Source: a phage. Taken from it: a DNA stretch of 64,000 nt. The DNA is taken from assembly GCA_024613925.1 (NCBI GenBank), contig GCA_024613925.1_4713.1. The stretch is one strand, 5' to 3'. The notes beneath the pieces were generated by a model. It was not told the DNA's origin and did no database searches. It saw only the letters and a list, made by a program, of their open reading frames with translations. How positions within the stretch are numbered: position 1 is the first letter of the stretch; each line of letters begins with the position of its first letter. Shown piece by piece: positions 1 to 53,411 of this stretch. Position numbers and translations under genes: made by a program.

Positions 1-1096
1 GAGCCGCGTTGCTGATTAAAGACTGTGCCCATGCCATGCCGCTGTTCAGCGTAGCGATGGTACCAATCAGACCCAGCACGAAGCTGTTCGGTGTGAACGC
101 ATCCAGCTCCAGCGGGTAAACGCTGGTCATCACGTAACGCGGCTGGTACTGTACAGTCGGCGGTACCGGATAGCCGTTAACCAGAACAGGGCCTTGGTTG
201 AAGGTCGGGTTCTGCGGGCTGTAGGTCAGGTCAATGTAACCGGTGGTGGCGACCAGACGCTGTTGACTATCGTAATCGCTCATCGCTTGACGGATGCGGT
301 TAGAGATAGTTACAGTGATGTCAGAACGCACAGGGTTACCAACAATATCGCTGTCCTGCATACCGCTGGTGTTGTACTGAACGCTGCTGATTGGCTGATC
401 GCTTGCCATCATGCCCAGGTTGAACTGCGGCAGACCCAGTTTATCACCGAGACGGATTTCGATCGCGGTTTGGATTGCGTTATCTGCAGCAGACAGCAGG
501 GTGGTTGCCAGATGCGCAGATTCAGCGGTGATTTCATTGGTCACCACAGCCAGACCAGCGATACGAACAGTACCGTTAGACTTACCGCCAATAGCTGAAT
601 ACATTGCCGCCATGACTTCGTTGATGAACGTACCGTTCAGGTTATCAACCCAGGTACGCGGTACCAGAATGTTACCATGCGGACCTTGTTCTTCACGACG
701 CGGCAGCGGAGCCAGACCAGCAACCAGCGGCAGGACGTAACCGAAGAAGTGGTTATGATCACCAACTTTTGCACCGCTCATAACAACCAGGGTCGGATAC
801 GGTACGCTGTACTGGTTCGGGTCAACCGCAACAAAGATGAAGTCGTCTTTGAACTGGGTATCTTCCAGATATTTCTCCATCAGACGACGGAGATTCAGTA
901 CCTGCTCGGAGCCGGTATTACGGCTGATACGACGGCTCAGTGTACGGTTGATCGTACGCATCGTATGAGTTACTTTAGGACGGTCGGCAAAATCTGCAGC
1001 GGTTTCCAGCGCCTCATCAGCACGTTGTGCGGTGCGGGTTTCAGCTGCACGAATTTCTACATTATCGTTACCGTTATTACGTACGTCTAAGCCCAT
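1..1096 (-). CDS. abundant early protein, 5' part only (gene runs past window start); candidate phage-nucleus shell protein (chimallin) or other major protein
   Basis: Minus-strand ATG at 1094-1096 with GAGGAA RBS; frame open to position 1; N-terminus MGLDVRNNGNDNVEIRAAET; strongly biased codons (CGT/CTG/GGT); early-promoter-like element 70 nt upstream; ten genes from phuZ. Confidence 0.5.
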   Translation of the reverse strand, partial: MGLDVRNNGNDNVEIRAAETRTAQRADEALETAADFADRPKVTHTMRTINRTLSRRISRNTGSEQVLNLRRLMEKYLEDTQFKDDFIFVAVDPNQYSVPYPTLVVMSGAKVGDHNHFFGYVLPLVAGLAPLPRREEQGPHGNILVPRTWVDNLNGTFINEVMAAMYSAIGGKSNGTVRIAGLAVVTNEITAESAHLATTLLSAADNAIQTAIEIRLGDKLGLPQFNLGMMASDQPISSVQYNTSGMQDSDIVGNPVRSDITVTISNRIRQAMSDYDSQQRLVATTGYIDLTYSPQNPTFNQGPVLVNGYPVPPTVQYQPRYVMTSVYPLELDAFTPNSFVLGLIGTIATLNSGMAWAQSLISNAA

Positions 1097-1165
1097 TTGG
1101 GATTCCTCTTTTCTTAAACTTTATTAAATGACGTCATTGAATCAGCTTCTACTCGCTCATTCACC

Positions 1166-1200
1166 TAGGTAATATAACCCTGAAATTTTTTTCAATATTG
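1166..1200 (-). promoter_or_regulatory. early-promoter-like element (sense: TATTGAAAAAAATTTCAGGGTTATATTACCTA), core TATATTAC
   Basis: 35-nt element conserved in three copies (also 30177-30212, 53366-53400), each 70-120 nt upstream of a minus-strand start; core matches the phiKZ early promoter consensus as I recall it. Confidence 0.45.
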
Positions 1201-4726: not shown

Positions 4727-4740
4727 ACGGCATAAAAAAG
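4727..4740 (-). promoter_or_regulatory. TATG-class promoter-like motif (sense CTTTTTTATGCCGT) immediately 3' of a terminator hairpin
   Basis: Motif T(T)TATGCCG recurs five times (4727, 8776, 25338, 31082, 52201), each 20-85 nt upstream of a minus-strand start. Confidence 0.4.
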
Positions 4741-14713: not shown

Positions 14714-15297
14714 GGGACATAAACCTCCATCAACATCGCATAAAGCGCACCAAGCCCATGCAGGACTTGGTTAGGTGCAAAGGTCGGAGTGTAACATACT
14801 TGTTCGGTCGGTGCTTGTTGACGTAAGTCTAACGGATCTCCGTTAATAAGCATCTGCAGGAGATCAGCATCATCTTGCAATGTGTCTTCATCGATATACG
14901 CATCAACACAAAGCAGTCGGTGTAACTGTTCTGGTTTAATTGAAATACCGACAACCATGCAGTTGTTGTAAGTGGCGTTGTCCAGAAAGAAGTGAATGAC
15001 GCCCGCTTGAGGATCGCCACCGTAGTGAAGCCAACGCGTAAAACCGGCCGACATCATCCATAGCGGGTTGTGTTGTAACGCGCTGACGACGCGGGTCTCG
15101 AAATCCAAACCAAACTTCTGGAAGATTGCACCCATCTGGAAACGATCTTCATCGAGACGGTAGCGGAATATACAGGCATCCGAACCGGTTGAATTATCAT
15201 ACACCGAAAGATACCCACGATGGATTTCCACGGTAACATTGTTGTCGTCAAGCGTAGCGCTCGCAACGCCGTTAGAAAAGGTTGGAACAAAGCTCAT
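14698..15297 (-). CDS. hypothetical protein (199 aa)
   Basis: ORF. Confidence 0.5.
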   Translation of the reverse strand: MSFVPTFSNGVASATLDDNNVTVEIHRGYLSVYDNSTGSDACIFRYRLDEDRFQMGAIFQKFGLDFETRVVSALQHNPLWMMSAGFTRWLHYGGDPQAGVIHFFLDNATYNNCMVVGISIKPEQLHRLLCVDAYIDEDTLQDDADLLQMLINGDPLDLRQQAPTEQVCYTPTFAPNQVLHGLGALYAMLMEVYVPCFKN

Positions 15298-15845
15298 CTT
15301 GTAATCCTTAATTTACCTGAATGAATTATCGTTGATGGGTCCACGACGCGACCGTATTTCGCGTTACGTAATACACGATGCCCAAAGAAGTCAGCGGTTT
15401 CCAAAACAACCGTATAACAACCCAGCTGGTGTTGGTGTCCCCAAAACCGTTCAATGGGGATCCAGCAGGGCGACATACCTTTGTGTCGCCAATCCGTAAC
15501 ACAGCCGAATTCAGCAAACTGTTCAGTAAACCACTCGTCAATGTCGGTATCCGTAAAGAGAAACACGTGGTTTTTAACCAGATAAGCGAACCCAGGATAA
15601 AAAAGCTGAGGGTCATCCGGGTCACGTAGATAAATACGAAGTTTGTCTAGCGTACCCTCGACAACGATTGTATCGGGTAATCCTGGCGGCGTGAACCGAA
15701 GTTGGAAGTTATCCTCGTTTGCCGAGGCGTTAACCAAATACCCCAGTTGAAGGGGTCGATGCAGTTCGAAAAGGTTAAACGTTAATGCATATTCGATATA
15801 CTCTAATCCTATATTCATGTCTGGCCTATGTGGTATGGTCGGCAC
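15294..15845 (-). CDS. hypothetical protein (183 aa), probable GTG start
   Basis: ORF; GGAAGG 9 nt upstream of GTG at 15845. Confidence 0.45.
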   Translation of the reverse strand: MPTIPHRPDMNIGLEYIEYALTFNLFELHRPLQLGYLVNASANEDNFQLRFTPPGLPDTIVVEGTLDKLRIYLRDPDDPQLFYPGFAYLVKNHVFLFTDTDIDEWFTEQFAEFGCVTDWRHKGMSPCWIPIERFWGHQHQLGCYTVVLETADFFGHRVLRNAKYGRVVDPSTIIHSGKLRITR

Positions 15846-15872
15846 TGCATTGCCTTCCGCGAGTGTAATCAG

Positions 15873-15898
15873 GAAGGTAATGTAGGTTTATTTTAATC
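15873..15898 (-). promoter_or_regulatory. variant of early-promoter-like element (shares GAAGGTAAT...TTATTTT with 53366-53400)
   Basis: Partial match to the 35-nt early-like element, 30 nt upstream of gene start 15845. Confidence 0.25.
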
Positions 15899-15956
15899 TC
15901 CATTTCGCGATGATATGACAGTCTTTATTACGTTTACCATCTGAGGGAGCATGCTC

Positions 15957-29474: not shown

Positions 29475-29577
29475 AGCGCTAACCCCAAAGGATAAAAATA
29501 AAACCTTGACATAACCACCACCGCAACCCCATACAGGGCTACGGTGGGGTCATACAGAGAGACGTGTTAGGTTACAA

Positions 29578-30057
29578 TCAGTCTTTCAGCAGCTCAGCCG
29601 CATACGCACTGATGTTGTCGCGAATATGCTTAACCTGAGTTGTCGGGAAAGATTTCTTATACGCGGTGGTCAGGCGTCCGTAAACCTGTTTCTTCTCGTT
29701 AGAGCCGAAACCAACTTCAGCGCTACGTTGAACCGTTGCGGACACAACGTCTTTGCCCAGCGGCAGGGTTACAGAAACAACGTCAACCTGTTTGTTATCC
29801 GCCATGAACTGCGCGCCAACGCGGCCAACCGCCAGACCGTGAGCCAGACCGATATCGGTGGTCAGTTTCTGTGCTTTTTCCAGGATTTCTTTTTCTTCCG
29901 GCGTTACCAGAGTACCCAGGAAATCACTACCTAACTTCTGGCTACCAGATTCGTCCAGTTTAATACCAGCGGCGATTTTATCAGAAAGAGCCTGAACTTC
30001 CGGACGTACGTTAGAAGTGGTTTCAGTCGCTACGGTGGTTTCTACAGCTTCAGACAT
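29578..30057 (-). CDS. small abundant early protein (159 aa), function unknown
   Basis: GGAG RBS; strong codon bias; early-promoter-like element 120 nt upstream. Confidence 0.55.
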   Translation of the reverse strand: MSEAVETTVATETTSNVRPEVQALSDKIAAGIKLDESGSQKLGSDFLGTLVTPEEKEILEKAQKLTTDIGLAHGLAVGRVGAQFMADNKQVDVVSVTLPLGKDVVSATVQRSAEVGFGSNEKKQVYGRLTTAYKKSFPTTQVKHIRDNISAYAAELLKD

Positions 30058-30176
30058 GTTAATACTCCAATTAGTTTTTTCGATCGATCAAAAGGATAAA
30101 ATCAGAAGATTCTTTCTTCATAGGGAAAACACAAGTCGGTTAAGGTTTACTTCTTAAACTCCTTGCGTTCTATCAG

Positions 30177-30212
30177 TTAGGTAATATAGACCTCAACTTT
30201 TTTCCAATAATG
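30177..30212 (-). promoter_or_regulatory. early-promoter-like element (sense CATTATTGGAAAAAAGTTGAGGTCTATATTACCTAA)
   Basis: Second copy of the 35-nt element; overlaps the last codons of gene 30193-30993. Confidence 0.45.
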
Positions 30213-30993
30213 CCGCAACGTTCCGCGCGAAACGAATTACCTTGTAATTGCGGGTCTGTTTGATATCTTCTTCCCCATCACTGTCACCTTCTGACGGATC
30301 TTCCCACATGAAGTCTTGTTCGTCCGCTTTCTGTAAGTAGCGGTATAACTGCACCATGCTGCGTGCGGTCGGAGAGATAGCGCGAAGCTCATCCAATTCT
30401 TCATCCGTCAACAGAACGTGCGATGAACGCAGCGGCTCCATTGTCGTATTACACAACAGACGAATCAGCAGATCGACGCACGGAATAACAGAACCTGGCG
30501 ATGCGATTTCTGGATGTAACGTATAACCCCAATATACGGTGTTAAAATACGTCAAAACAGCAGGTAGTGACGGATGTTCCATCGCACGGCCAATTTGTTG
30601 TCTTACGATAGATGCACGATCGTTCAACACATCGAAAGTAATCTGCTGCGGTTCCATAACCGCAAGTGAAATACCGTACGCGTCAGCCACGCCCAGGATT
30701 TCATGAAGGGTCGAACGTTCTTCTTCGGCGGATATTGTCCCGATTGCTTTACGCCCTGCAAGGTCAATCAGCATCGGTGAAACAGCTTCTTTAACCGCAT
30801 TAAAAGAAGCCTGGTAAGCGTGTTTGTGAATATACAGTGTCCACGCTAATGCGCGCTCAGCCGCATGAAGCAGATCGACATAAGACAGTTCTTGATGGCA
30901 TGGGCCATACACACTCACAGCAAGCTTGGTGGCTTTCTCAGAGGCTTGCATAATAACATCTGGTGATTTAGGCATATCGCGTTCTTCTTGCAT
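30193..30993 (-). CDS. hypothetical protein (266 aa)
   Basis: ORF; TATG-class motif 85 nt upstream. Confidence 0.5.
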   Translation of the reverse strand: MQEERDMPKSPDVIMQASEKATKLAVSVYGPCHQELSYVDLLHAAERALAWTLYIHKHAYQASFNAVKEAVSPMLIDLAGRKAIGTISAEEERSTLHEILGVADAYGISLAVMEPQQITFDVLNDRASIVRQQIGRAMEHPSLPAVLTYFNTVYWGYTLHPEIASPGSVIPCVDLLIRLLCNTTMEPLRSSHVLLTDEELDELRAISPTARSMVQLYRYLQKADEQDFMWEDPSEGDSDGEEDIKQTRNYKVIRFARNVAALLEKS

Positions 30994-31081: not shown

Positions 31082-31095
31082 GACGGCATAAAAAG
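31082..31095 (-). promoter_or_regulatory. TATG-class promoter-like motif (sense CTTTTTATGCCGTC)
   Basis: Motif family member immediately 3' of hairpin 31098-31123. Confidence 0.4.
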
Positions 31096-33608: not shown

Positions 33609-35132
33609 TTACACCTCGCTAACCTGGATAACGTAAAGCTGTTGGGCCACGTAATCGGTGGTCAGATGCATTGTTGCGATGGTCGCAGCTTCGAATACCG
33701 TGAGTTCAGGACGTTCACGCATAATCAAATCGATCTCGTCGATGAGACGGTTAACGCCTTGAGCGTCTTCGTGATGCATGGTTTTCACGTACAGCGTACG
33801 GAAATACTGCTGGAAGTTAGCTACGTCGGTATCGGTAAGGGTAGCAACTTCACCACGTACGATTTCCATAACCTTCTTACGGGTATCTTCATCGAGGTCC
33901 ACTGTAATCAGGTCAGCAAATACGCCCTGCAATGCCAACGCGTATGCACGTAAACGGTTTGCAGCTTGCTGGCTGGCTTTCATGTTGATGTAGTTACGGT
34001 AATGTTGCATGAAACCAGCACCGTTAGCCAACAGTTCGTCTTTACTGATGAGTTCGCGTTCTAACAGGACAGCTGCGGTCAGTGCTTCCGGCGAACCACC
34101 TTCTTGCAGATAACCCATGTAGACATCTGCGTTAACGAAAATCGTCATCGCTGACGCGTCTTCAGCACGTTGAATCTGAGAAGCTGACGGTGCAGAAAGA
34201 ATCAGTTCACCACGCTCCATACGCAGGATACGATCACGACCGACGCGGGCCATCCCGTTGATCGCCGCAGCACGAGCTTGTTGCATTTTAGCGCGGTAGT
34301 TTTCAAGCATCATGTCGTTGCCGTCCTGGATATCTTCCAGCAGGTTAACGGCCCACATATAGCAGAGGAATGCAGGAGTTGCCGCAGCGCGGGAACCGTG
34401 GAATGCAACATTATCGCTATCCGGATATGTAATCAGATAAGCGGTGTTGTTTGAAGAAGGAGCAGAACCACGGAAGAAATAGTTGTAGATGTCTTCCAGT
34501 GCCTGATCGCTCATCCCTTCCGTCGCTTGCTGCACAAAACGATCCAGGTTTTCATTACCGGTATACAGCAACGTACGCAGCTTATCACCGGTGATAAACG
34601 CAAGCTTTCCGGTTGGGGTGAAATCGTTATTAATCGAAATCAAGCCGTTGAGGTCGTAATCGCTAACTAAGGTCTGGTACTCTTCGGAGTTATAAAACTC
34701 AGGATAGTAACTCAGACTTACTGTCGGGATCAGTTTCGGTGCCAGGATGATCGAATCGATACGTTTTTCCAGTTCCGGGTACAGCGCACGGCATTTCGGC
34801 AGGATGGTATTACGCGCCAACTCTTTGGCATACACCACTTTTTCCACCACGTCTTGAACTGCGGTCTGTAAAACTTCATCGTGGATATAAACCTCGCGTT
34901 CGCTGGCAGGTGCTACAGCGCCATCTTCGGTTTCATCAAGTGTTTCAGCAACAACCATACGTTCAGCACTAAGCTGCACCAACGCATCCGCGTCTTCCGG
35001 TGGCTGGTTCCAATGCATGGTTTCACAAACCGCGGCTAACGGCGTACCTGGAATGGCTGCGACGATTTGGTTACGTTTGATAAACCCTTCGACAATGGGT
35101 TCAACGGCATAAACGGTTTTATTGGTGATCAT
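33609..35132 (-). CDS. hypothetical protein (507 aa)
   Basis: ORF; ATGA coupling with upstream 77-aa ORF. Confidence 0.5.
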   Translation of the reverse strand: MITNKTVYAVEPIVEGFIKRNQIVAAIPGTPLAAVCETMHWNQPPEDADALVQLSAERMVVAETLDETEDGAVAPASEREVYIHDEVLQTAVQDVVEKVVYAKELARNTILPKCRALYPELEKRIDSIILAPKLIPTVSLSYYPEFYNSEEYQTLVSDYDLNGLISINNDFTPTGKLAFITGDKLRTLLYTGNENLDRFVQQATEGMSDQALEDIYNYFFRGSAPSSNNTAYLITYPDSDNVAFHGSRAAATPAFLCYMWAVNLLEDIQDGNDMMLENYRAKMQQARAAAINGMARVGRDRILRMERGELILSAPSASQIQRAEDASAMTIFVNADVYMGYLQEGGSPEALTAAVLLERELISKDELLANGAGFMQHYRNYINMKASQQAANRLRAYALALQGVFADLITVDLDEDTRKKVMEIVRGEVATLTDTDVANFQQYFRTLYVKTMHHEDAQGVNRLIDEIDLIMRERPELTVFEAATIATMHLTTDYVAQQLYVIQVSEV

Positions 35133-35466: not shown

Positions 35467-36597
35467 TTATTTAGCGTCGTTAAAGTAAATATCAACAGCT
35501 CGTTCCGTTGCGTAGAGGAGACCAAGATTCACAGTCCCAACCACTTCCGGTGAACCGATGATACGGTTAGCGATACTGGTGCCACTGAAGATAGCATCAA
35601 GGGTGTGCCCGTCTTCGGTTTTGTTCACACCATGACCCACGGAAGAGACAACGGATTTCGCTTGTGCTGCGAAGGTACCTTTATCACCCATCCCCGCACC
35701 AAGGTCGTAACGCATGAAAATACGGATAGCGATCTGGTTCTCGCCTAACGGATTGCCGTCTATTCTCACGTTACTATTGTTGATACGCCCTGTTGCTGCC
35801 TCGTTGAGTTTCAGTTCCTTAACGCGTTTAGCTCGCGCTTTATCCGCTTCACCGACGAGCGCCGCCATGGTTTCACTCATATCCTCAATCTGAGCACGGT
35901 ACAGTACATCGATCTGTACAACTTCACCATGAACGTCAGCACGTGGGTTATACTGACTCATACGACGTAATGCTTCAACGGCTTCCTGACTCTCATCACT
36001 CAGATCGGTTGCAATCGGTTCTTCCAGTGTTGCAAGAATCGTTCGTGGTTCAACGTGATCACCGATTTTCACAAGACCACGAATATTGAGATGGGCGTCA
36101 ACGATGAGCGTACGGCTCTTAATCGATGGTGTTACGAGACGATCGGCAAGATTGTCGAAGATATACGAACTGTCCTCGTGCGTCTCTGGAATATCCAGAA
36201 TACCGACAAGAGACAGCACACCTGCGCGCCAAACAACCTGGCCTGGGTTCCACCAATCGCGTTTGAAATAAAGACGATGGAAAACCACCACATCCTGATC
36301 CTTAACGCGATCCCCGACTTTATAATCGGTAATGAGATCGTGAGGATAATACTTACCTGGCCCTTTCCCGATTATCGTACCGAGCTGGAAAACCTCTTCC
36401 CCTAACTCTGGATCGTCGTATTGTATCGTAAGCGCAGTTTTGGTGACCTTCTTAACAACACCATCGCCTTGGGCGGCGGCCGCGAAGAGTTTACCAACAC
36501 GATGCGCGATAACAGTCTCACCGCCGGTGCGCCACGGTTGTACATCGTAACCCTCAGCGGCAATCATGCGGTTGTGCTGTATACCTATAAATACCAA
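35467..36597 (-). CDS. RNA polymerase beta-like subunit, downstream exon (catalytic double-psi barrel region); true exon probably begins near 36545
   Basis: GMGDKGTFAAQAKSVVSSV (beta GDKxxxRHGNKG region) and DGHTLDAIFSGTSIANRIIG (beta [21 protein letters not shown]-like); N-terminal TGGETVIAHRVGK...GDGVVKKV resembles beta [14 protein letters not shown]...GGVVQYV; no RBS before the apparent TTG/ATG start. Confidence 0.6.
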   Translation of the reverse strand: MVFIGIQHNRMIAAEGYDVQPWRTGGETVIAHRVGKLFAAAAQGDGVVKKVTKTALTIQYDDPELGEEVFQLGTIIGKGPGKYYPHDLITDYKVGDRVKDQDVVVFHRLYFKRDWWNPGQVVWRAGVLSLVGILDIPETHEDSSYIFDNLADRLVTPSIKSRTLIVDAHLNIRGLVKIGDHVEPRTILATLEEPIATDLSDESQEAVEALRRMSQYNPRADVHGEVVQIDVLYRAQIEDMSETMAALVGEADKARAKRVKELKLNEAATGRINNSNVRIDGNPLGENQIAIRIFMRYDLGAGMGDKGTFAAQAKSVVSSVGHGVNKTEDGHTLDAIFSGTSIANRIIGSPEVVGTVNLGLLYATERAVDIYFNDAK

Positions 36598-37090
36598 TCT
36601 CTTGGGCGAATTTAGTTCTTATTCAACATAATCGTACTATTACCAGAATAAGACTGAGATTAGATTGTTCAGATAAGGTCGTTAATCTTATCCCGGAGGC
36701 GACGATAGGCACATCACCTCCCGCTTGCGCTCTCACGCAAGAGCAGACTATATCACATCTCGTTTCAAACGGTGCTTCTTCAGCACCTCAACGAGAGTTC
36801 ACTTCTTCCCAGCGCATCCAGCGCCATTCTCTTATCCAAGGAGAATGCCTCACTCGAGGGGTACAGGGGGATGAATCCCTTAGTCGTTGAACCTTTACCT
36901 TAGAACGCTTCACAGCGATCCTTAGGTACTTGGCTGCGGATTGTCCTTAAGCTATTATCTGTTTTTATAACCATACCGTCTTTCTTTTCAGAATCCGTTT
37001 TGGTCGATAACAGCGATGGATGTCTTCGCAATTCAGTGAATCTCATCTACATGTCGCCACATAGACGGACCCTGCTATTAAAAGCGTTAA
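36545..37090 (-). ncRNA. group I self-splicing intron (no intron ORF); boundaries approximate
   Basis: On minus strand in order: P-like AATTGCGAAG (37024-37033), Q AATCCGCAGCC (36932-36942), R GTTCAACGACTA (36881-36892), S GATATAGTCTG (36744-36754); flanking ORFs together give a contiguous RNAP beta sequence. Confidence 0.6.
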
Positions 37091-40000
37091 TCATCTCTAT
37101 CAGCAGCAGGTACTGCAAGCGCCGACGTACTCATTATTGACGAGCTACCATCCGTTTTCTCGTCGTAAGGTTTCGTTTCACCGTATACAGACACAATGTT
37201 TGCGTTAGGTGCGAGGTAAGCAGAAATACCTACGTCCCCACTATCCTTCGTACCTTCGGATACAACACCAATGTCCGACTTGTCGTATTCACGATCGCGT
37301 GCGCGTCGAAGCGATGTCTTTGAACGACCCCCGATACCGGTCATCGTCGCTTCTTCACCCTGCTTGATATCCAGCATCGGGTTGGTTTCATCGATTACGA
37401 TGGAAGCGCTGTCGTCGAGAATCTGGTTCCAGACGCTTACCGGACTGATTGAGATTTTCTGGCGGTTTCCTTGACTGCTGTTCTCATTCTGACGAATAGC
37501 GCCAACCAGATCCTTATACACCAACTCAGCGAACTTATCGTACGTTTTAAAACGTTGGTAGTTCACATCGTTCGTGTTAGGTGCCCAATCATCCAGAAGC
37601 AGTTCGACGGCACGCAGTAACAACATGGCGAAATCGGTAGGTTCTCCCATGTTCTGCAGCAACGTACGGCTTACCGGATCAACGAAAAGACGCTCCATGA
37701 GTTCAAGTTCGCGTAAATGGCGAACCTTAAGTCCAGCCCCATCGACAACGTTAAAATAGATATCTCGATTGTCAAAAGCGCCGCGAGCGTAACCAATGTA
37801 GTTACGGTATTCGTTAAACCCACCCAGCAACAACGTCGTCATGCGATCGTCTTTACTGAAGATCAGACTTTCGTCGTCAAAGCTCACCGCGAATTCATCG
37901 GGTGCTAACCCCATACGAGAGCCGCGAGGTACCGTACGATAGTTCGCTTTAAGATGTTCTAATAACGGGGTAAGCCCACCCAGATAACTTAGAACAACAC
38001 CGACCGGAATACGTACACCCATGAATTCAAGATCGGCGGCTTCGATCGGCATCTTAGCCGCATTGATACCGAAGAAATCAGGGAACGTCCCTACAGGTGT
38101 TGGTGTTTGTCCTGACTGACAGATATAGAGCTGATTGCGTTTATCGATTGCTAAGAATTCACCCAGCGTGTTACGCGCAAACGTCAGGAGTCCTTCGGCT
38201 AACTGTTCGTTGAACCGATCTTCCCCAATGAACTCCGGCAATGTCTTTGTATCGAGACGTATATCCCAATCAGCAAATTGGATTTGGGTATAGTTGCGTG
38301 CAAGCACAGCGAAGTAATACGGAACTTTGACAGCTGGATCAAAGACGTTACCACGTTTCAACGTGGTTAAGGGTGAGGACTTATCGTAATACATCGCCGT
38401 AAGTTGACGTGTTAGCCAACGACCCGCATTATTAACGACACGCTCTGAACGTTTAACAAACACCTTACCGTAGGCGGTACTCAACGCAACTTCAGATGAC
38501 GATACCTTTCTAATAGGTTTATCAACACGTTGTTTACGCATCCGGTATTTGATGCCGTTAACGACATAAATGCCGTCCTTACGAACCTTCGGCAACATCA
38601 CCGGGAACGTGGTCGGGACACCGCCTACAGGAGCCAGTTTAATCGTGATGACTTGATAATCCCCCATCACGTCAACAACATCTTCAACTTTATATCCCGT
38701 GACAGGGTAACCTGCCTGCTGTACCGCAACGACGGCAGCTGCGATGTCCTTTTGCATTACGTGTTCAACGTAATGTTTATCCCACACCGCAAGCGTCGAT
38801 TTACACAGGCTCTTATCGACGATAACATCCGCTTCCGGCATAACCTTTGCAGGCGCTAATTTTGCGGCTTTTGGTTTAACTTCAACATACTCAGCAAGTG
38901 TTAATCCAGAACCGTCGGGTGCTTCGATTTCATGGATGGCGTCAGCATTACGCATCGCTGCTTTATATTGGACACCGCTTAACTGACCCGCATCCGCCAG
39001 ATCGCTCGCGCGTACCAACACCGCATCCGATAACGACTGAATATATTCGCCATGCGTTTTCGGTAACGTTGCCGCGTCAAAGACATCAACCTTTTCTTCT
39101 TCGGTATCGTCGGTAACGACTTCGAAGAGATCGTCGGTAATGTCCTGATCTTCATCGGGCTGGAAATCTGGTTGTACTTCTACCCCGGGTACTTCACGGA
39201 CATCTTCGAACGAGCGTTCTACAATGGCGTTCCACGCATCGGCATCATCGTCTTCATCCGACCCACCGACCAACTCCGCTTCTAACTCGTCGGGATCAAG
39301 AACGGTAGCGAGATCCTCACCGTTAGGAAGCACGACGTCGCGATCATCATACTCCGCATCCGGGCTGTCCGCAAGAATATCTCGCTCTTGACGAAGAACC
39401 TGTTCCTCTTCTTGTTTCTGTTCTTCTTCATTCGCGCTCTGCGACCACAGACGTGTTACCGCCATCATCCAACGACGTTGGAAGGTTTCAAGTGTCGTTT
39501 TATCGAGTTCTTCCCCTTCCTTCACAAGTCCGGTACGCCATTCTTCCAGCAGGCCGAGATTCAGCGTAAAGAAGTACACACCGTCTGTAAATACGATGTT
39601 AAGCTTATCCAGCGTGGCTCTGTCTAACGAAGCCATCGTGCTGTTCTCACGATCGGTTCCCAACCAGCGGAAGAAGTCAAAGAACGACAGCTCCTCCGGT
39701 GTGGCGAAATTCATGAGGTTATTACGGGTCGGTGCCTGTTGCGTGGTACGCATCAACGAAATCTTCGGCAATGTTGACGGTATACGGAACAACAAAAAGT
39801 GTTGGCGATCGCTTTGCTGTGCGATTTCGTTGGCTTTCGACCAAATTGTTTTACGTACGTTGAACCATTCATCATACCAACGGGTGAGCGTTGGACGATA
39901 AATGTACATGTGGTTAAGATGCGCGTAGTTAGCAACGATCTGAGCGTTGATGTTTTTCTCCACCGTGCTTAGATCGGTAACCAAACGAAAACGACGATGT

Positions 40001-40299: not shown

Positions 40300-41946
40300 T
40301 TAGGCTCCACGAGGTCCCGTTAAGTTGCGTAATAGGAACGCAACCGTATCGTAACCAATATCAATGTTGAATTTATTTTTACCACTTACCCAGAAAGCTC
40401 GCTTCTTGTGCGAGTTGGTAATTTCGTCAATAGCTTCCATGGAATAAAGAACGTTAACCGAGACCGTATCACCGTCGAAGTCCGCCCCGAGGCCAGCTAG
40501 AAACACCTGGCCGACTTGGGTCGTTTCTACAAATGACGCTTTCAATGACCAATCTGGGTATTCCCATGCCATATACCGATCGCCTTCTAACGGTTGCCAA
40601 TCGACACCGAGTTCTCTTCTTGGCTTCGTGTTAACTGTCGTCCGCACATAGCAGGTTAACGGTATAACTGATTGCATTCCCGATACTGGATAACGTGTCA
40701 CCATCGCACCGAGTTTATTCCAAAGATGATAACCGCTCAGATAAACCAATTCGCAGTATGTAACCGGATGAACATTAGCGCCAGGTTTGTTCAGCATCTC
40801 TGGGGGTATTTCACTCATGCCACGGAATAACCGAAACGAATCGTTGTTCACATAGACGAGGCAAAGATAACGCCCATTAACCATGATAGGTTCGTTACGC
40901 ACACCAGGATCGCTTAGCGTGTTCAGTAAACGTTCGATACCGTCCCACGTTGTAAAGTCATCGATGGTATCTGGGTCTAACGTGACGCGTTCACGTTCCA
41001 TCGTTTCGGTATCGATAAGCTCAGCTTCAGTAACATCACGAACAAATATTTCCTGCAAAATCCCCGTACGTAATGCGTGCTGTGTGATAGGAAGAGCAGC
41101 CTTGCTCATCTGATATAGACCAAGTTGTACTGATGTACACGAAGTCTGGTTCGGTGAGCCGAGAACCTCTGTAGTTGGGATGACAGCCGAAATAACGTTA
41201 CGGGTTGAGTTCCAAACGCGACGTGAACCGAACTTCCCTTGGAAGATCCCTTTCTTACCTTGGAACATATCCAACAACAAAGCGTAGATATCGTTGAATG
41301 TTCTCTGTAAGCTCCAGCGCTGGCCGTCGTAAACGGGATCGGAATAATCTTTTAATCCATCAGGGACGGTGTTAGAAATTGCAAGGAAACGACGATACAA
41401 CTCCGTGATTTCTTGCTCGCTTTCATACCCGCCTTCTTTTACTTCTATTTCACGTAAGCCTGCAGGTAATACCAGTAAGTGACGGGTCATCGCTTTGAAC
41501 ATGTTCTCTTCGACAACTTTAATTCGTAGCTCTCGTTGAGCTGAACCCGTTGAAACGAACTTGATATCCGCGACGTGTTGTGCAAAGAACCCGTATCCTG
41601 TTTGTCCTGTTAACGCATCAGACGCAACGAAGTCGCGTTGTTCAGGATCCCAACGAGCATACGCCTTTCCCGACATGATATCACCATAGAGGTGTTTTAG
41701 TCGAATGAGGCGGTCGTAAATGACAGGGTGCAGGATTTCAACCTTGCATTCAATCACCGCAAATCGACGGTCTCGATCTTCACTACCTGCACTACCAAAG
41801 ATGGTGTAAGAATAGAAACCATCATCGTGGAAATTACCGGTGCTTGGGTCACGAATGCTCATGCTCGTGATCTTGGGGAGAAAACGTAACTGCTGTTTAT
41901 CGAGGTGTAAAATACTAATGTTAAACGGCTCTCTGACTTTAGCCAT
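40300..41946 (-). CDS. RNA polymerase beta-prime-like subunit, N-terminal catalytic part (548 aa from ATG 41946)
   Basis: GADFDGDTVSVNVLYSMEA matches the universal beta-prime NADFDGDQMAVHVPLTLEA; GKFGSRRVWNSTRNVIS resembles GKRVDYSGRSVIT; AGAGGAG RBS before ATG 41946. Confidence 0.7.
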   Translation of the reverse strand: MAKVREPFNISILHLDKQQLRFLPKITSMSIRDPSTGNFHDDGFYSYTIFGSAGSEDRDRRFAVIECKVEILHPVIYDRLIRLKHLYGDIMSGKAYARWDPEQRDFVASDALTGQTGYGFFAQHVADIKFVSTGSAQRELRIKVVEENMFKAMTRHLLVLPAGLREIEVKEGGYESEQEITELYRRFLAISNTVPDGLKDYSDPVYDGQRWSLQRTFNDIYALLLDMFQGKKGIFQGKFGSRRVWNSTRNVISAVIPTTEVLGSPNQTSCTSVQLGLYQMSKAALPITQHALRTGILQEIFVRDVTEAELIDTETMERERVTLDPDTIDDFTTWDGIERLLNTLSDPGVRNEPIMVNGRYLCLVYVNNDSFRLFRGMSEIPPEMLNKPGANVHPVTYCELVYLSGYHLWNKLGAMVTRYPVSGMQSVIPLTCYVRTTVNTKPRRELGVDWQPLEGDRYMAWEYPDWSLKASFVETTQVGQVFLAGLGADFDGDTVSVNVLYSMEAIDEITNSHKKRAFWVSGKNKFNIDIGYDTVAFLLRNLTGPRGA

Positions 41947-45100: not shown

Positions 45101-48100
45101 GGCACGTGAAGGTCTTAATGGAATCACAACGGTATTAAGTCTGCCACGGATGTTAAAACGCGGTGCGGTCGAGATCTACAAACAGCTTGACAAAACACCC
45201 GACGTTTACGTCAAGGGAGAATCAACGCCTCGTCTGTTGTCCACGGTGTTAGCAGCGGGTGGGTATTTCCGTCGGTCGGATGGACAAGTCATCAAAAATC
45301 TTGAAGACATCGATGGTGATGTTGTTGATGCACAAGGTAACGTCGTACTTACGCTTGCCGATATGCAGAAAGGACTTGTCGATAAATACGGTAAAGCGGT
45401 TCGTCGCTTAAAAGAAAAGCTCATCAACTTCGGTGTAAAAGCTTTTACGTTACCGTTAACGCTGCTGCGTAAGACGAAGGACATCCTTAAAGCCCTTCCA
45501 GGTAAAACCGTTAACGGTCTACGACGGATGGGATTAAATTTCCAATCACCTGACGCATTACTGGTGGGAACAACGTCGAGCATGGTAGATCGTCTCGATG
45601 CGATTTATAAGCTCCTCGACCAGCGTATGCCGGGAGGCGATAAGGATTACCGCGATTGGAATGGCGATGGTGTTCGAGAAGGATCGTTGGAAGACCTGAA
45701 ACGTAAGCGCGCGGCCAAGGAAAACGGTAAGGATGACACCGGCAAAGATTCCGGTAAAGGAGAAGAAAAGGAGAAGAAACGAGGATTACTCGGAAGCCTT
45801 TTCGATATGCTTGGCGATACCGCATTAGGTAAACGACTCATGGCGAGTCCGCTTGGAAAAATTCTAGGTGGTCTTGGGGCGGTGTTAAGCGGCGGAGCAT
45901 CGTTAACCGGATTGTTGGGTAAGGGTCTCATTAGTGGAACCGGCGCGCTAGTCAAGGGAGGACTAAGTGTGGCAGGATGGTTAGGACGTGGTGCGTTAAT
46001 GGCGGGCGGGGCCGCATTGAACGCCGTTGGTGGGTTATCGGGATTAGGTGCATTCCTCATCTCACCTGTTGGGCTTGCTATTGCAGGTGGTGCATTGGCT
46101 GCTTATGCTGGATGGAAGATCTATCAGCATTTCGCCGAGAAGCCTGACCCGATGCAGAAGCTCCGTCTTATTGCATACGGTGCAAAAGGGGACGATAAAG
46201 ACTTCAATAAGAAGCTGCTTGCGACAGAAACATACCTCACCGACCATGTGGTTATGACCGGGGATACCATCGGATTCGATCCGAAAGCCGATTCTGAAAA
46301 GATTCTCGAAATCTGGGAATTGTCCCTGGAAGATTCCGACCGAATGAACGAATGGAAACGCTGGTATCTGCATCGTTTTATTCCTGTTTTCGCTCGCGCG
46401 TACAAACTCTGGAAAGAGCATATGCCGGACGAGAAGAAATACATGGAAATGGATAAATATCCAAACGGTGAGAACAAAGTGAAATGGTCGGAAGCGTTTA
46501 TCTGGCCTTCCGATAGTCCTGACGGTCCGTATTACGTCGAAGCTAACCCGTTGGGTTCTTCTGGTGCGACGCGTTATATTGCTGGTCAAGACGTCAAAAC
46601 CTTGATGCTGAAACAACTCGAAGCCATCAAGAAAGAGTACCAGAATCAGATCAAACAATACACTCATGATGAGGCTATTGCTGATTGGTCACGGATGTCT
46701 GACACACAACGTAAATCCGTTGCGCCTAACGCATTACGCGGTCAGAAAGCGTCGTTACGTTTTAACGATAAGCGTTACAACAGCGCTGGCGCTAAAGGAC
46801 GACAGAAGCTTGACGCAACCGCCGTTATTGAAAGCGTAGACCGCCGTGGTAGGAAATGGGTTGCTGGTGGATACATCGATGAACTCACCAGTCTCCGTGT
46901 TCGCGCGTACGGTATCAAGGTTCCGTTGTTAAGTCAGATAAAAGTGCTGATGGAACTTGAAGACGCCGTAGAACCCGGCGTTGTCGCTGAAGGTAAAGGT
47001 GTTAAATACGGTGGCGATCTTGTTGCGCTCTACAAGAAATTCGCGACGAAGTTCGGAAGAGACGTTAACAGCAAGCGGGATCAGGATATCTGGTTTGCTT
47101 GGATGAATAACCGTTTCCTACCCGTCTTTTTAACCTACTACCAACAAGTTAGCGAAATGGGCGGTCAAGGTCTTCTGTCCGACGTGGTACAGAACCTGAA
47201 AGACAGCCAACGTTGGGAAATCGGTGAAGCACTTGTCGCAACGCAATACCGTGATGAGAAAGGTACACTGCAGCCTGTATGGTCCTGGAATAGTTGTGGT
47301 TTCTCCGGTACTGAAGCTAACACCATCAGCAGTTCAACAAAGAGCCAACTCGATCTGTTAAAAGAATATGCGGATAAAGAGAAGGTTCGTGAGAAGAACG
47401 CGGAAGCATCGCAAGAGGATACCGATAAATTATCGAAGATCCAAGAGCTGATGATGAAGCAGGCTGGGTACGAGAAGAAAGACGGTGTCTGGCAGAAGAA
47501 ATCTCGCATTACCGGCGGGATGAGTAACTCCGAAGCGAATTACAACCCCAGTGGGAATAGGGTGGGTGAAAGCAGCTTTACGGCTTCGGCTACCTCCAAT
47601 GCGGGATTAGGGTCAACCGGCGATGTTACTGGATTGCCTAACATGGGCTTACAGAAACCTGCAACGGGACCAGGTCCTGAAGCTGGACGTCGTGCGCTTG
47701 TTAAATCCGCTGTAAAACGCGGCATTACCGATCCAATGGAAATGGCGATGTTCCTTGCGAATATCGAACATGAATCGGGGAACTACACTCACGTACGTGA
47801 GGGGAACTATAAGACACCAGAGCGTCTTAAACAGGTCTTCCCTTACAAATTCCGTGATGTGCAGGATGCCGCACAGACGATCAGCATGGGGCCGGAAGCG
47901 GTATTCGAACGTGTGTACGGTAATCGTAAAGATCTCGGAAACACACAGAAAGGGGACGGGGCGAAGTATTTAGGGCGTGGCTTCATTCAGGTTACCGGTA
48001 AAGCTAACTACGCTCGTTTGTCTAAGACCTTGAATAAGGATCTTGTCAGCGATCCGACCTACCTGGAAACGCCGGAAGGTGCAGCGGAAGGTAGTGTTGC

Positions 48101-52200: not shown

Positions 52201-52211
52201 ACGGCATAAAG
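52201..52211 (-). promoter_or_regulatory. TATG-class promoter-like motif (sense CTTTATGCCGT)
   Basis: Motif family member between hairpin 52211-52236 and gene start 52171. Confidence 0.4.
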
Positions 52212-52236
52212 CCTACCCACACAATGGTGGGTAGGC
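52211..52236 (-). terminator. hairpin GCCTACCCAC-ACAATG-GTGGGTAGGC
   Basis: 10-bp perfect stem downstream of gene 52254-52766. Confidence 0.5.
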
Positions 52237-52253
52237 TAAGATCAACATCGATG

Positions 52254-52766
52254 TTAAACTTCTTCGTTTTCTGAACCTAATGATTCAGCATCTGGATCGT
52301 CAACAGGAATAGTTGCGTCAAAATACCGTTTCGTATGCGTGGTTGTATAACCTACGCTATCTGTGATGGAAATCGTAAACGTGACTTCTCTTGCACGGAT
52401 TAAGCGTAGTTTATTCATGAAGTTACGGAACGGCATCGATCCCCGATTCAACTCCTTAATGACGTTTCCCCGAATACTGGAAATGTCTTTATTCGTTTTA
52501 TCAGGATGTCGTTTCTTCACATCACGCATATGTCGGGTAATATACGAATTGAGCTGATTTGCGCCGATCCCTCTCTCCGTATAAATCTGCAACAGGAACT
52601 CCGTAAGGAAATCCTGTCTACCCGTAGGCGTCCAGAAATTGTTACCGTGATGGTAGTTAGTCGCTCGTCCTCGATTGCTTTGAGGATTTTCATCATCGCT
52701 TTCGTCACGACGCTTAAGCGGATTAATGCGCGCGCGAAAAGAGACTTCATTATATTTATTTGTCAT
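52254..52766 (-). CDS. hypothetical protein (170 aa from ATG 52766)
   Basis: ATGA overlap with stop of upstream gene 52763-53278. Confidence 0.45.
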   Translation of the reverse strand: MTNKYNEVSFRARINPLKRRDESDDENPQSNRGRATNYHHGNNFWTPTGRQDFLTEFLLQIYTERGIGANQLNSYITRHMRDVKKRHPDKTNKDISSIRGNVIKELNRGSMPFRNFMNKLRLIRAREVTFTISITDSVGYTTTHTKRYFDATIPVDDPDAESLGSENEEV

Positions 52767-53278
52767 AATACACCAGTGTACTGACTGAGTGCGAAGGTTA
52801 GGAGTTCGCAACAGTCTCTCGCTAGTTTCCTTGTTTTGCGTAATCCATAAGCCGCATCCAAATCGTCACGTTCCGCCAGCGCGTCTAACCACGTCGCAAG
52901 TATGCGTCCATACTCGATAACGTCACGCATGAGAACGTCGAACTGGATAACACGACCATCGGCATCAGCAAGCCAACGATTGAATGTGATTTGTGGTGCT
53001 AGTATTGCATATGTTCTCTCCTCTAATGCTATTATGTTTATGTTGCCTTCGTTATCGAACGCTTGATGCCAACGGCGAAGGTCAAGCATCAACGACTCAG
53101 CGTCCATATACCACAACGGTAAATACGTTTTACGTGCAACGCGTATATCGTAGATGTTGTGAACCCAGGACGTTGTTTTGTAAAGCAACAAGAGTTCGTT
53201 TAACCGTTGCCTATCATCTTGAAACGTCTTCCTTTTATAACGTTGGAATGCACGTCTCAAGAAAAAGCGATGTAACAT
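52763..53278 (-). CDS. hypothetical early protein (171 aa)
   Basis: ORF; early-promoter-like element 88 nt upstream. Confidence 0.5.
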   Translation of the reverse strand: MLHRFFLRRAFQRYKRKTFQDDRQRLNELLLLYKTTSWVHNIYDIRVARKTYLPLWYMDAESLMLDLRRWHQAFDNEGNINIIALEERTYAILAPQITFNRWLADADGRVIQFDVLMRDVIEYGRILATWLDALAERDDLDAAYGLRKTRKLARDCCELLTFALSQYTGVL

Positions 53279-53365
53279 GGCATCACCTATGTATCATTCT
53301 TGCAGGCATCAATGAAGCCATCACAAGAAGGTAACGTTATACGTCGCCTTCATGACAGTCATCAT

Positions 53366-53400
53366 GAAGGTAATATAGTCCTGTTATTTTTTTCAATACG
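53366..53400 (-). promoter_or_regulatory. early-promoter-like element (sense CGTATTGAAAAAAATAACAGGACTATATTACCTTC)
   Basis: Third copy of the 35-nt element with TATATTACC core. Confidence 0.45.
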
Positions 53401-53411
53401 GAGAATGTAAA

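Follow-up and report, generated by a model that had tools for sequence, protein, structure and literature searches.

Three nearly identical elements precede three minus-strand genes in a 64,000-nucleotide stretch of phage DNA (NCBI GenBank assembly GCA_024613925.1; hereafter the window), and they raise the question of whether they act as promoters and, if so, by which RNA polymerase (RNAP) they are read. [quoted passage not shown] The same interpretation had been given in the preliminary description of the sequence, and it is supported by the match to the published consensus, by the pattern across the genome and by equivalent sites in related phages. Signals of this type have been described for phiKZ and related phages, and no earlier report was found of these copies in Goslar. 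Neither a description nor a map of Goslar promoters was found in the searchable literature, and the Goslar GenBank record has terminators annotated and no promoters.

Source of the DNA and identity of the downstream genes

The first 6 kb of the window matched Escherichia phage vB_EcoM_Goslar with 97.6% identity, and the whole window aligned to positions 171805-237260 of the Goslar genome with ~95-97% identity, two indels aside. The source of the window is a Goslar-like chimallivirus (genus Goslarvirus, family Chimalliviridae), a nucleus-forming jumbo phage of E. coli, with a G+C content here of 46.5%. The window and Goslar differ in their introns: a group I intron is present at 36724-37091 in the vRNAP gene gp207 of the window and absent from Goslar, and the intron and HNH endonuclease located between gp207 and gp205 in Goslar are absent from the window.

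The gene at the window start encodes the nuclear shell protein chimallin (chmA), and the other two genes downstream of the elements are homologues of Goslar gp214 and gp200, the latter paired with the small gene gp201 (Table 1). These are the three genes that the preliminary description had placed downstream. The gp200 and gp201 products had no Pfam match, and the only PHROGs that they matched were of unknown function.

The three elements in the window

The minus strand carries three copies of the 31-base element TATTGRAAAAAANNNNAGGNNTATATTACCT (1167-1197, 30179-30209 and 53368-53398). A search with the pattern TATTGAAAAAAANNNNAGGNNTATATTACCT allowing up to three mismatches returned exactly three matches in the window (with 0, 1 and 0 mismatches, respectively), and none of 100 dinucleotide-preserving shuffles yielded a match. 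The distance from the 3' end of the element to the ATG was 70 nt for chmA, 120 nt for gp214 and 88 nt for gp200. The preliminary description of three near-identical minus-strand elements located 70-120 nt upstream of genes was thus accurate; its count of three holds within the window, and the genome as a whole has at least 12 sites.

All three elements contain the exact core TATATTAC. A spacer of 2 nt separates the core from the heptamer TTTCAGG, GTTGAGG or TAACAGG, which is itself preceded by TATTGRAAAAAA, and the core is followed by CCT-N3-TGA. The 9-mer core string TATATTACC was found in four copies in the window, all on the minus strand, versus 0.46 expected. Its fourth copy (52536-52544) was ruled out as a promoter; it lies inside the gp201 coding sequence without the upstream motif and is probably a chance occurrence.

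The three sites differ in their surroundings. The upstream half of the predicted gp214 promoter overlaps the 3' end and the TGA stop codon of the preceding gene (30193-30993), and the predicted gp200-gp201 promoter sits in a divergent intergenic region where the inverted repeat CCTTCATGA-N6-TCATGAAGG spans the predicted start. For the +1 positions in Table 1 we infer a core at -14 to -7, because the core of such promoters is centred at -10 (PMC7598289) and the 201phi2-1 motif ends at the transcription start site (TSS; PMC11512511). The predicted 5' leaders fold no better than shuffled sequences (z = -1.3, -1.4, -1.9 and 0.0), and Rfam gave no match there.

Table 1. Features of the window discussed in the text, with coordinates on the 64,000-nt stretch.
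Feature	Position	Strand	Remarks
chmA (chimallin, nuclear shell protein), 5' part	1..1096	-	RefSeq HOV27_gp246; ATG at 1096, extends past window start
Perfect palindrome AATGACGTCATT	1127..1138		chmA leader, predicted +25 to +36; starts 42 nt before ATG
chmA early promoter (predicted)	1160..1200	-	Goslar matrix score 48.9; 31.9 with non-window matrix
Parts of the predicted chmA promoter	1197-1186; 1185-1179; 1176-1169; 1164-1161	-	box TATTGAAAAAAA; TTTCAGG; core TATATTAC; conserved GTGA
Weak variant	15868..15908	-	cores TACATTACC / TACATTAC (15884-15877); predicted +1 ~G15870; upstream of ORF 15294-15818 (Goslar gp225)
Terminator-like hairpin followed by GGTTATG	29510..29554	-	-32.4 kcal/mol, z = -4.8, 0/200 shuffles fold as well; closes gp214 unit
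Gene for 159-aa protein, Goslar gp214 homologue	29578..30057	-	HOV27_gp214, annotated hypothetical; single-gene unit
gp214 early promoter (predicted)	30172..30212	-	core TATATTAC 30188-30181; score 43.6; 24.2 with non-window matrix
Hairpin AGCCTACCCAC..GTGGGTAGGCT followed by TTTATGCCGT	52201..52237	-	z = -3.4; likely terminator of gp200-gp201 unit
gp201 homologue	52254-52766	-	small gene, pairs with gp200
gp200 homologue	52763-53278	-	HOV27_gp200, 171 aa, hypothetical
gp200-gp201 early promoter (predicted)	53361..53401	-	core TATATTAC 53377-53370; score 43.8; 24.8 with non-window matrix
Predicted +1 of the three promoters (approximate)	G1162, G30174, G53363	-	about Goslar 172964, 201930, 226681

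Distribution of the motif across the Goslar genome

The genome-wide motif search suggested in the preliminary description was run on the complete Goslar genome, and it returned 12 strong sites as well as a de novo recovery of the motif. The exact core TATATTAC occurs 10 times on the minus strand and not once on the plus strand. With a position matrix built for Goslar, 12 sites scored 43-56, and the maximum reached in shuffled genomes was 20. According to the gene tables all 12 strong sites are minus-strand sites that lie between genes and ahead of a gene of the same orientation; one of them lies under an annotated ORF of 62 aa. The annotation-free recovery came from a k-mer test of Goslar upstream regions, where TATATTA, CTATATT and ATATTAC were the most enriched words after those resembling Shine-Dalgarno sequences.

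The consensus of the Goslar sites was c..tAat.cAaaa..TTTCAcG.cTAtATTACcTa.gTGAt, with two upstream flavours. Five sites, all outside the window, read TTAATCCAACATTTTTCACGGC-TATATTAC-TTANGTGA and carry the upstream box TTAATCCAA; in the three sites of the window the sequence is TATTGAAAAAAA-NNNN-AGG-NN-TATATTAC-CTNNNTGA; and in another four the core is TACATTACC. A matrix constructed from the nine non-window Goslar sites still recognised the window sites, with the scores given in Table 1 against a mean maximum of 3.4 in 64-kb shuffles. One strong Goslar site lies upstream of a minus-strand run of genes leading to the RNAP gene gp171, and a weak variant lies upstream of gp165; together with the site ahead of chmA, this choice of genes agrees with that in phiKZ. 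When the matrix sites were compared with the gene tables, no Goslar site directly preceded a vRNAP gene.

A weaker variant had been noticed in the preliminary description at 15873-15898. A candidate promoter was indeed located there. It scored 15.0 with the matrix from the 12 Goslar sites, and only 0.7% of 64-kb Markov shuffles scored as high. The string TGGAGAT-N-ACCTACATWACCT is common to this variant and the site upstream of the Goslar RNAP gene gp165. Since the variant is intergenic and has the same orientation as gp225, whose start is 52 nt further on, it is plausible as a fourth site, possibly as an early promoter of low strength or as one of a different promoter class.

Agreement with published early promoters

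The published early-promoter consensus of phiKZ is TATATTAC, identical to the core in the window and in agreement with the consensus that the preliminary description had given. The corresponding strings are TTAWTAVAA_HYWTTTRARR_BTATATTACDWHDGTG for 201phi2-1 and ...TTTCARRYAKATATTATYWAAGTGWA for OBP/N1M2 (all PMC7058600, Table 2). The sequence TTTCAGG-GTT-ATATTAC-CTAG-GTGA of the window fits the OBP/N1M2 string at every position and with equal spacing. In jumbo phages the early motif lies ~10 nt before the TSS, and further upstream, beyond -19, there is a T-rich part; such motifs can be detected bioinformatically before early operons in every RNAP-encoding jumbo phage, and wherever transcripts were profiled the motif was the early-promoter consensus, with the injected virion RNAP as its presumed reader (PMC7598289, PMC8244752, PMC11512511).

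The likeness to phiKZ includes the same 8-nt core, a T-rich or A/T-rich sequence beyond -19 and the placement of sites between genes before early operons. Host and genome composition differ, however, and CCT-N3-TGA follows the cores of the window; Goslar also has fewer sites, 12-14 as compared to the 28-32 given for phiKZ (Ceyssens 2014 as cited in PMC8244752 and PMC10914365). The promoters of 201phi2-1, OBP, N1M2 and EL have a similar layout of TTAWTAVAA, TTTRARR/TTTCARR, TATATTAC or ATATTAT, N4 and GTG (PMC7058600, Table 2; PMC11512511), whereas the upstream box of the window elements is TATTGAAAAAAA instead of TTAATCCAA. Phages of the AR9/PBS2 type follow a comparable strategy in which an injected virion RNAP reads an AT-rich motif near -10 (PMC7598289, PMC5312081), but they belong to another phage family and have another motif, the late AR9 motif AACA-N6-TA being read on the template strand of uracil-containing DNA.

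The components of such a system are present in Goslar. Mass spectrometry of Goslar virions identified the five vRNAP subunits gp78, gp196, gp205, gp207 and gp210 (bioRxiv 10.64898/2026.04.21.720040), four of which are encoded within the window, and several genes for fragments of RNAP beta/beta' are annotated in Goslar. No sigma homologue is known for vRNAP (PMC13282480). The RNA of chmA is detected in Goslar at 5 min post infection, arises from the EPI vesicle and is also found when formation of the nucleus is blocked (PMC10541120).

Equivalent sites in other chimalliviruses

The chmA loci of phiKZ, RAY, Proteus phage 10, Eowyn, RSL2 and PhiPA3, whose ChmA proteins are ~20-25% identical to that of Goslar, were compared with the window. 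An element of the same type was found upstream of chmA in all six. In phiKZ the element is aatGAAAAAAATTTGAGATTTATATTACtaaattga, and its core is located 80 nt before the ATG of chmA (gene 54), as in the window; for this phiKZ gene dRNA-seq has mapped a primary TSS associated with the early promoter (PMC8244752). The distance is 77 nt in RAY, 70 nt in Proteus phage 10, 111 nt in RSL2 and 137 nt in Eowyn, and the PhiPA3 element has the variant core TATATCAC. The top scores of the Goslar matrix upstream of chmA were 25.6 (phiKZ), 24.7 (Proteus phage 10), 20.3 (RAY), 13.5 (Eowyn), 12.9 (RSL2) and 6.6 (PhiPA3), and all other positions in these six loci scored below 0.

The phiKZ and window copies share 22 specified bases. 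The resulting pattern GAAAAAAATTTNAGNNTTATATTAC matches phiKZ and Goslar exactly, their ChmA proteins being ~25% identical, and in IMG/VR it matched only Goslar-like and phiKZ-like contigs. Close relatives were rejected as a footprint: over ~280 nt upstream of chmA the window does not differ at all from the three Goslar-like IMG/VR contigs, which are therefore uninformative on which bases are constrained.

The comparison extends to a second gene, the gp214 orthologue of Eowyn, which is preceded by AAAAAAGTT-N-TATATTAC-TAACTG, with AAAAAAGTTAAACACGTATATTACTAACTG 109 nt before the ATG. Because equivalent sites precede both chmA and this orthologue, the pairing of promoter and gene is itself old.

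Downstream units, codon usage and gp214

The predicted promoters head short units. The gp214 unit is closed by a hairpin followed by a TTATG-type sequence and the gp200-gp201 unit by a likely terminator of the same kind (Table 1), and gp200 and gp201 are presumably transcribed together from the third promoter. With at most one mismatch TTTATGCCGT occurs 14 times in the window versus 4.8 expected, 12 of the 14 being on the minus strand. These hairpin-TTATG terminators resemble the conserved terminator motif of phiKZ, a hairpin followed by TTAT (PMC10914365). Beyond the window, a hairpin lies between chmA and the nvRNAP beta' gene that comes next in Goslar, and an RNA polymerase gene is named next after chmA in four of the six other annotated loci.

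Codon usage was measured as the fraction of E. coli optimal codons, with the codon set taken from the work of Ikemura and of Sharp and Li. The gp214 homologue (0.79) and chmA (0.775) ranked first and second among 60 window genes, for which the median was 0.487, and the tail sheath gene came next (0.656). Hence two of the three downstream genes are strongly codon-optimised, as had been noted from the sequence at the outset. The third, gp200, is average (0.457), an observation that speaks against the early-promoter reading. In the complete Goslar genome gp214 and chmA ranked 4 and 5 of 241, below the major capsid protein, the inner-body protein gp58 and gp23, the last of these an annotated virion structural protein that is virion-associated in high copy.

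The gp214 product represents a conserved, uncharacterised chimallivirus family with a confident structure model (pLDDT 92). It had no Pfam match, a word-based search found only its own cluster, the model had no match in the PDB (best E = 0.09), and the matches in BFVD were all uncharacterised jumbo-phage proteins. Judged by promoter and codon usage, gp214 looks like ChmA, i.e., a protein made early and in very large amounts. It is among the most abundant proteins of virion preparations (>200 copies), which suggests that it may be needed late as well; the same preparations also held ChmA and PhuZ as contaminating assemblies.

Proposed mode of action and alternative readings

In the proposed mechanism the multisubunit vRNAP packaged in the virion would enter the early-infection vesicle together with the injected DNA and recognise a tripartite signal on the minus strand, composed of the A/T-rich box TATTGAAAAAAA (~-35 to -24), TTTCAGG (~-23 to -17) and the invariant core TATATTAC (~-14 to -7). 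Transcription would start at the conserved (G)TGA, 5-8 nt downstream of the core, and would require neither a host sigma factor nor new protein synthesis. Three short units would be driven in this way, i.e., chmA (together with the nvRNAP beta' gene in Goslar), gp214 alone, and gp200-gp201, the latter two ending at their terminators. We infer the identity of the polymerase, the exact +1 and the early timing of the gp214 and gp200 units. If the early-promoter reading is true, a change in the core such as TATATTAC to TCTCTTAC would alter transcription.

Two published observations may count against this mechanism. In PMC10541120, the legend of Extended Data Fig. 4 gives a point 91 nt before the ATG as the beginning of the chmA "TSS sequence" on display. 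A literal reading would put the start at -91 within the element and 11 nt before TATATTAC instead of after it. Because a neighbouring gene with an intergenic region of 92 nt is given the same number, we take the figure to be the limit of a display window and not a start site, a reading of the legend that must be checked. The other observation is that 175 of 249 Goslar genes were detected at 5 min (PMC10541120). Only 12-14 sites for 175 genes would imply either long early transcripts or the use by vRNAP of promoters beyond this motif.

Among the alternatives, the elements could be promoters for the non-virion RNAP in the middle or late phase of infection, or could be used both early and late. 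The abundance of gp214 in virion preparations would fit such a role, and there are precedents in phiKZ gene 54, where dRNA-seq placed the primary TSS at the early promoter and a secondary TSS at a middle-promoter motif (PMC8244752), and in the continuously expressed genes of AR9 and PhiR1-37 (PMC7598289). However, the middle (TACT, ~-22) and late (TATG at +1) motifs of phiKZ are unlike the window element (PMC7598289, PMC8244752), which agrees with the early consensus over ~30 positions; chmA is transcribed early in Goslar (PMC10541120); and when the Goslar gene tables were read against the matrix sites, no copy was found ahead of the classic late genes for capsid, sheath and terminase. We therefore consider a middle, late or dual use improbable.

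It is more improbable still that the elements are not promoters at all. Short conserved intergenic repeats can serve other roles, and the elements might be a repeated site for a regulator, a replication factor or a packaging factor, or the remnants of duplications. The flanks of the window copies are unrelated beyond the ~40-nt element, which excludes a duplication, and the elements keep a strict orientation with the downstream gene and a fixed distance class to its ATG, head units that end in terminators and are identical to experimentally mapped promoters of phiKZ and 201phi2-1 (PMC8244752, PMC11512511).

Finally, the elements are scarcely credible as host sigma70 promoters for the E. coli RNA polymerase (TTGAAA as -35, TATATT or TATTAC as -10). 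Sigma70 promoters are likewise AT-rich and made of two parts, one of them TATA-like and near -10, and both hexamers deviate from the consensus by only one or two mismatches. This reading is rejected because the spacer is 13 bp (15 bp with TATTAC) instead of 16-18 bp and because a consensus scan of the minus strand called no site at the three elements; the preliminary description had likewise found their spacing unlike that of sigma70 promoters. Moreover, TTTCAGG, ACCT and TGA are conserved outside the sigma70 elements, chimallivirus transcription is rifampicin-resistant and independent of the host polymerase (PMC4666361, PMC13282480), and a vesicle encloses the injected DNA (PMC10541120).

A palindrome in the chmA leader

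The predicted chmA leader of the window contains the perfect palindrome AATGACGTCATT (Table 1). For comparison 14 chmA loci were gathered individually. A perfect palindrome of 12-18 nt, beginning 38-54 nt ahead of the ATG, was present in 11 of 15 chimallivirus chmA leaders, the background in those loci being 0.031 per 100 nt (P = 3.6e-14); counted by lineage the figure was 7 of 11 (P = 9e-9). Where the core was recognisable, the palindrome started 24-34 nt after TATATTAC. Across the leaders of the Chimalliviridae its position is conserved and its sequence is lineage-specific: it is AATGACGTCATT in Goslar, ..CTTGATCAAG.. in the phiKZ group, ACATTAGCTAATGT in RAY and Proteus phage 10, ACACACTCGAGTGTGT in FLC9 and TGTTCGCGCGAACA in LucasX. 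Within the phiKZ group the palindromes differ by symmetric compensatory pairs (TTCTTGATCAAGAA, TACTTGATCAAGTA, TTAACTTGATCAAGTTAA, TCTTGATCAAGA).

No such palindrome was found in the other 13 early leaders of Goslar. The 12-mer AATGACGTCATT recurs once in the Goslar genome, in an intergenic region with an early-promoter site upstream of gp159. In Goslar the capsid gene also has a leader palindrome (ACTTATATAAGT), as does gp58, where CACATTAGCTAATGTG contains the chmA palindrome of RAY and Proteus phage 10. When the list of palindromes was read against the gene tables, their enrichment in Goslar leaders was only about two-fold genome-wide, so that the palindrome signal rests on the comparison of chmA among phages and not on Goslar alone. 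A literature search found no report of a palindrome in the chmA leader.

We put forward, as a tentative proposal that may well prove wrong, that the early promoter of chmA is coupled to a regulatory element formed by the leader palindrome, and that the window promoters of the TATTGAAAAAAA type constitute a distinct high-output subclass of vRNAP promoters. The palindrome could bind a dimeric phage factor or act as an RNA duplex or hairpin signal, and would in this way control the output of chmA, the most critical early gene.

Implications

Among nucleus-forming phages, Goslar serves as the E. coli model. The early-promoter matrix provides predicted starts for chmA and for the very highly expressed unknown gene gp214, and marks short early units bounded by terminators. 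It also offers portable vRNAP promoters for the engineering of Goslar; in phiKZ the consensus early promoter has already been used for engineering (PMC12676376). The accepted picture of chimallivirus transcription is unchanged by these results. Because the chmA promoter is nearly identical in phiKZ and Goslar despite ~25% identity of the ChmA proteins, the comparison suggests that the promoter specificity of vRNAP is among the most conserved traits of the family.

Palindrome in the chmA Leader

The 5' leader of chmA, the gene for the nuclear shell protein, was found to carry a perfect palindrome of 12-18 nt in 11 of 15 chimalliviruses (the loci compared including the window, L010-L015 and L023-L029), which is an enrichment over the background of the same loci (P = 3.6e-14). 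In the 11 chimalliviruses having one, the palindrome starts 38-54 nt upstream of the ATG. Its sequence differs by lineage, and within the phiKZ group the changes are symmetric and compensatory. The palindrome was not found described in our search of the literature.

Palindromes were also identified in the leaders of the top two codon-optimised genes of Goslar, the major capsid gene and gp58, and the 14-mer that RAY and Proteus phage 10 have in their chmA leaders is part of the gp58 palindrome. Apart from that of chmA, the Goslar early leaders, 13 in number, were without such a palindrome. The chmA 12-mer itself has exactly one further copy in Goslar, located in an intergenic region which also contains the early-promoter site upstream of gp159. 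In the window, an inverted repeat lies across the position where transcription of the gp200 unit is predicted to start, and it includes ATGAC-T-GTCAT, the half-sites of which are those of the chmA leader palindrome.

Coordinates and sequences of the features identified in the window and in related phages
Feature	Genome	Position	Strand	Sequence or remark
chmA-leader palindrome	Window	1127-1138		AATGACGTCATT
chmA-leader palindrome	phiKZ			TTCTTGATCAAGAA
chmA-leader palindrome	RAY, Proteus phage 10			ACATTAGCTAATGT
chmA-leader palindrome	FLC9			ACACACTCGAGTGTGT
chmA-leader palindrome	LucasX			TGTTCGCGCGAACA
Major capsid gene leader palindrome	Goslar	45685-45696		ACTTATATAAGT; 24-35 nt upstream of ATG
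gp58 leader palindrome	Goslar	65117-65132		CACATTAGCTAATGTG; 26-41 nt upstream of ATG
chmA 12-mer, further copy	Goslar	142859-142870		AATGACGTCATT
Inverted repeat, gp200 unit	Window	53340-53363	minus	CCTTCATGA-TGACTG-TCATGAAGG
Weak promoter-like site	Window	15868-15908		Ahead of gp225
Weak promoter-like site	Goslar	151618-151658		Ahead of RNAP gene gp165
Hairpin tail, examples	Window	4727-4736; 31083-31092; 35104-35113; 52201-52210	minus	TTTATGCCGT
Hairpin	Window	29510-29554	minus	
gp214 homologue	Window	29578-30057	minus	159 aa
Insertion in gp207 homologue	Window	36597-37103		~507 bp
Group I intron, within this insertion	Window	36724-37091	minus	Rfam RF00028, 56 bits
Segment at the gp206 position	Window	40479-40633		153 bp

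Weak Promoter-Like Sites and Terminator-Like Hairpins

The two weak promoter-like sites have the pattern TGGAGAT-N(11-13)-CCTACATWACCT in common, which differs from that of the strong sites (the putative virion-RNAP early promoters), and they may constitute a weaker class of promoter in their own right. The window also has repeated GC-rich hairpins with TTTATGCCGT as their tail. Allowing at most one mismatch, this tail has 14 matches where 4.8 would be expected, and 12 of the 14 are on the minus strand. The arrangement resembles the conserved terminator motif of phiKZ, ...GGGRRGGBYTTATKYYGT (PMC10914365). The tail contains TATG, the late-promoter consensus of phiKZ at +1 (PMC7598289).

Comparison With Goslar and Related Contigs

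The intron content of the window and of Goslar differs in both directions, each having an intron that the other lacks. The insertion in the homologue of gp207, a virion-RNAP subunit gene, is missing from Goslar, whereas the 153-bp segment of the window stands where Goslar has an annotated intron with the HNH/NUMOD endonuclease gene gp206 (~2.2 kb). Compared over its whole length, the window was identical to none of the three Goslar-like IMG/VR contigs found (including L008 and L009). Its sequence tracks contig L009 within chmA and Goslar upstream of chmA, which suggests a mosaic of Goslar-like lineages.

The gp214 Homologue

The family of gp214 is uncharacterised and conserved in chimalliviruses, with 56 distant relatives. 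The predicted model of the homologue, although of high confidence (pLDDT 92), had no match in the PDB, and the BFVD structure collection returned matches from Eowyn, PhiEaH1, KTN4, Phabio, and RSF1. Its optimal-codon fraction of 0.79 is the highest in the window, and the gene ranks 4 of 241 in Goslar. More than 200 copies of gp214 have been reported for Goslar virion preparations, a figure that applies at the level of the preparation. Since the gene has a predicted early promoter of the chmA type, gp214 may be an abundant early protein.
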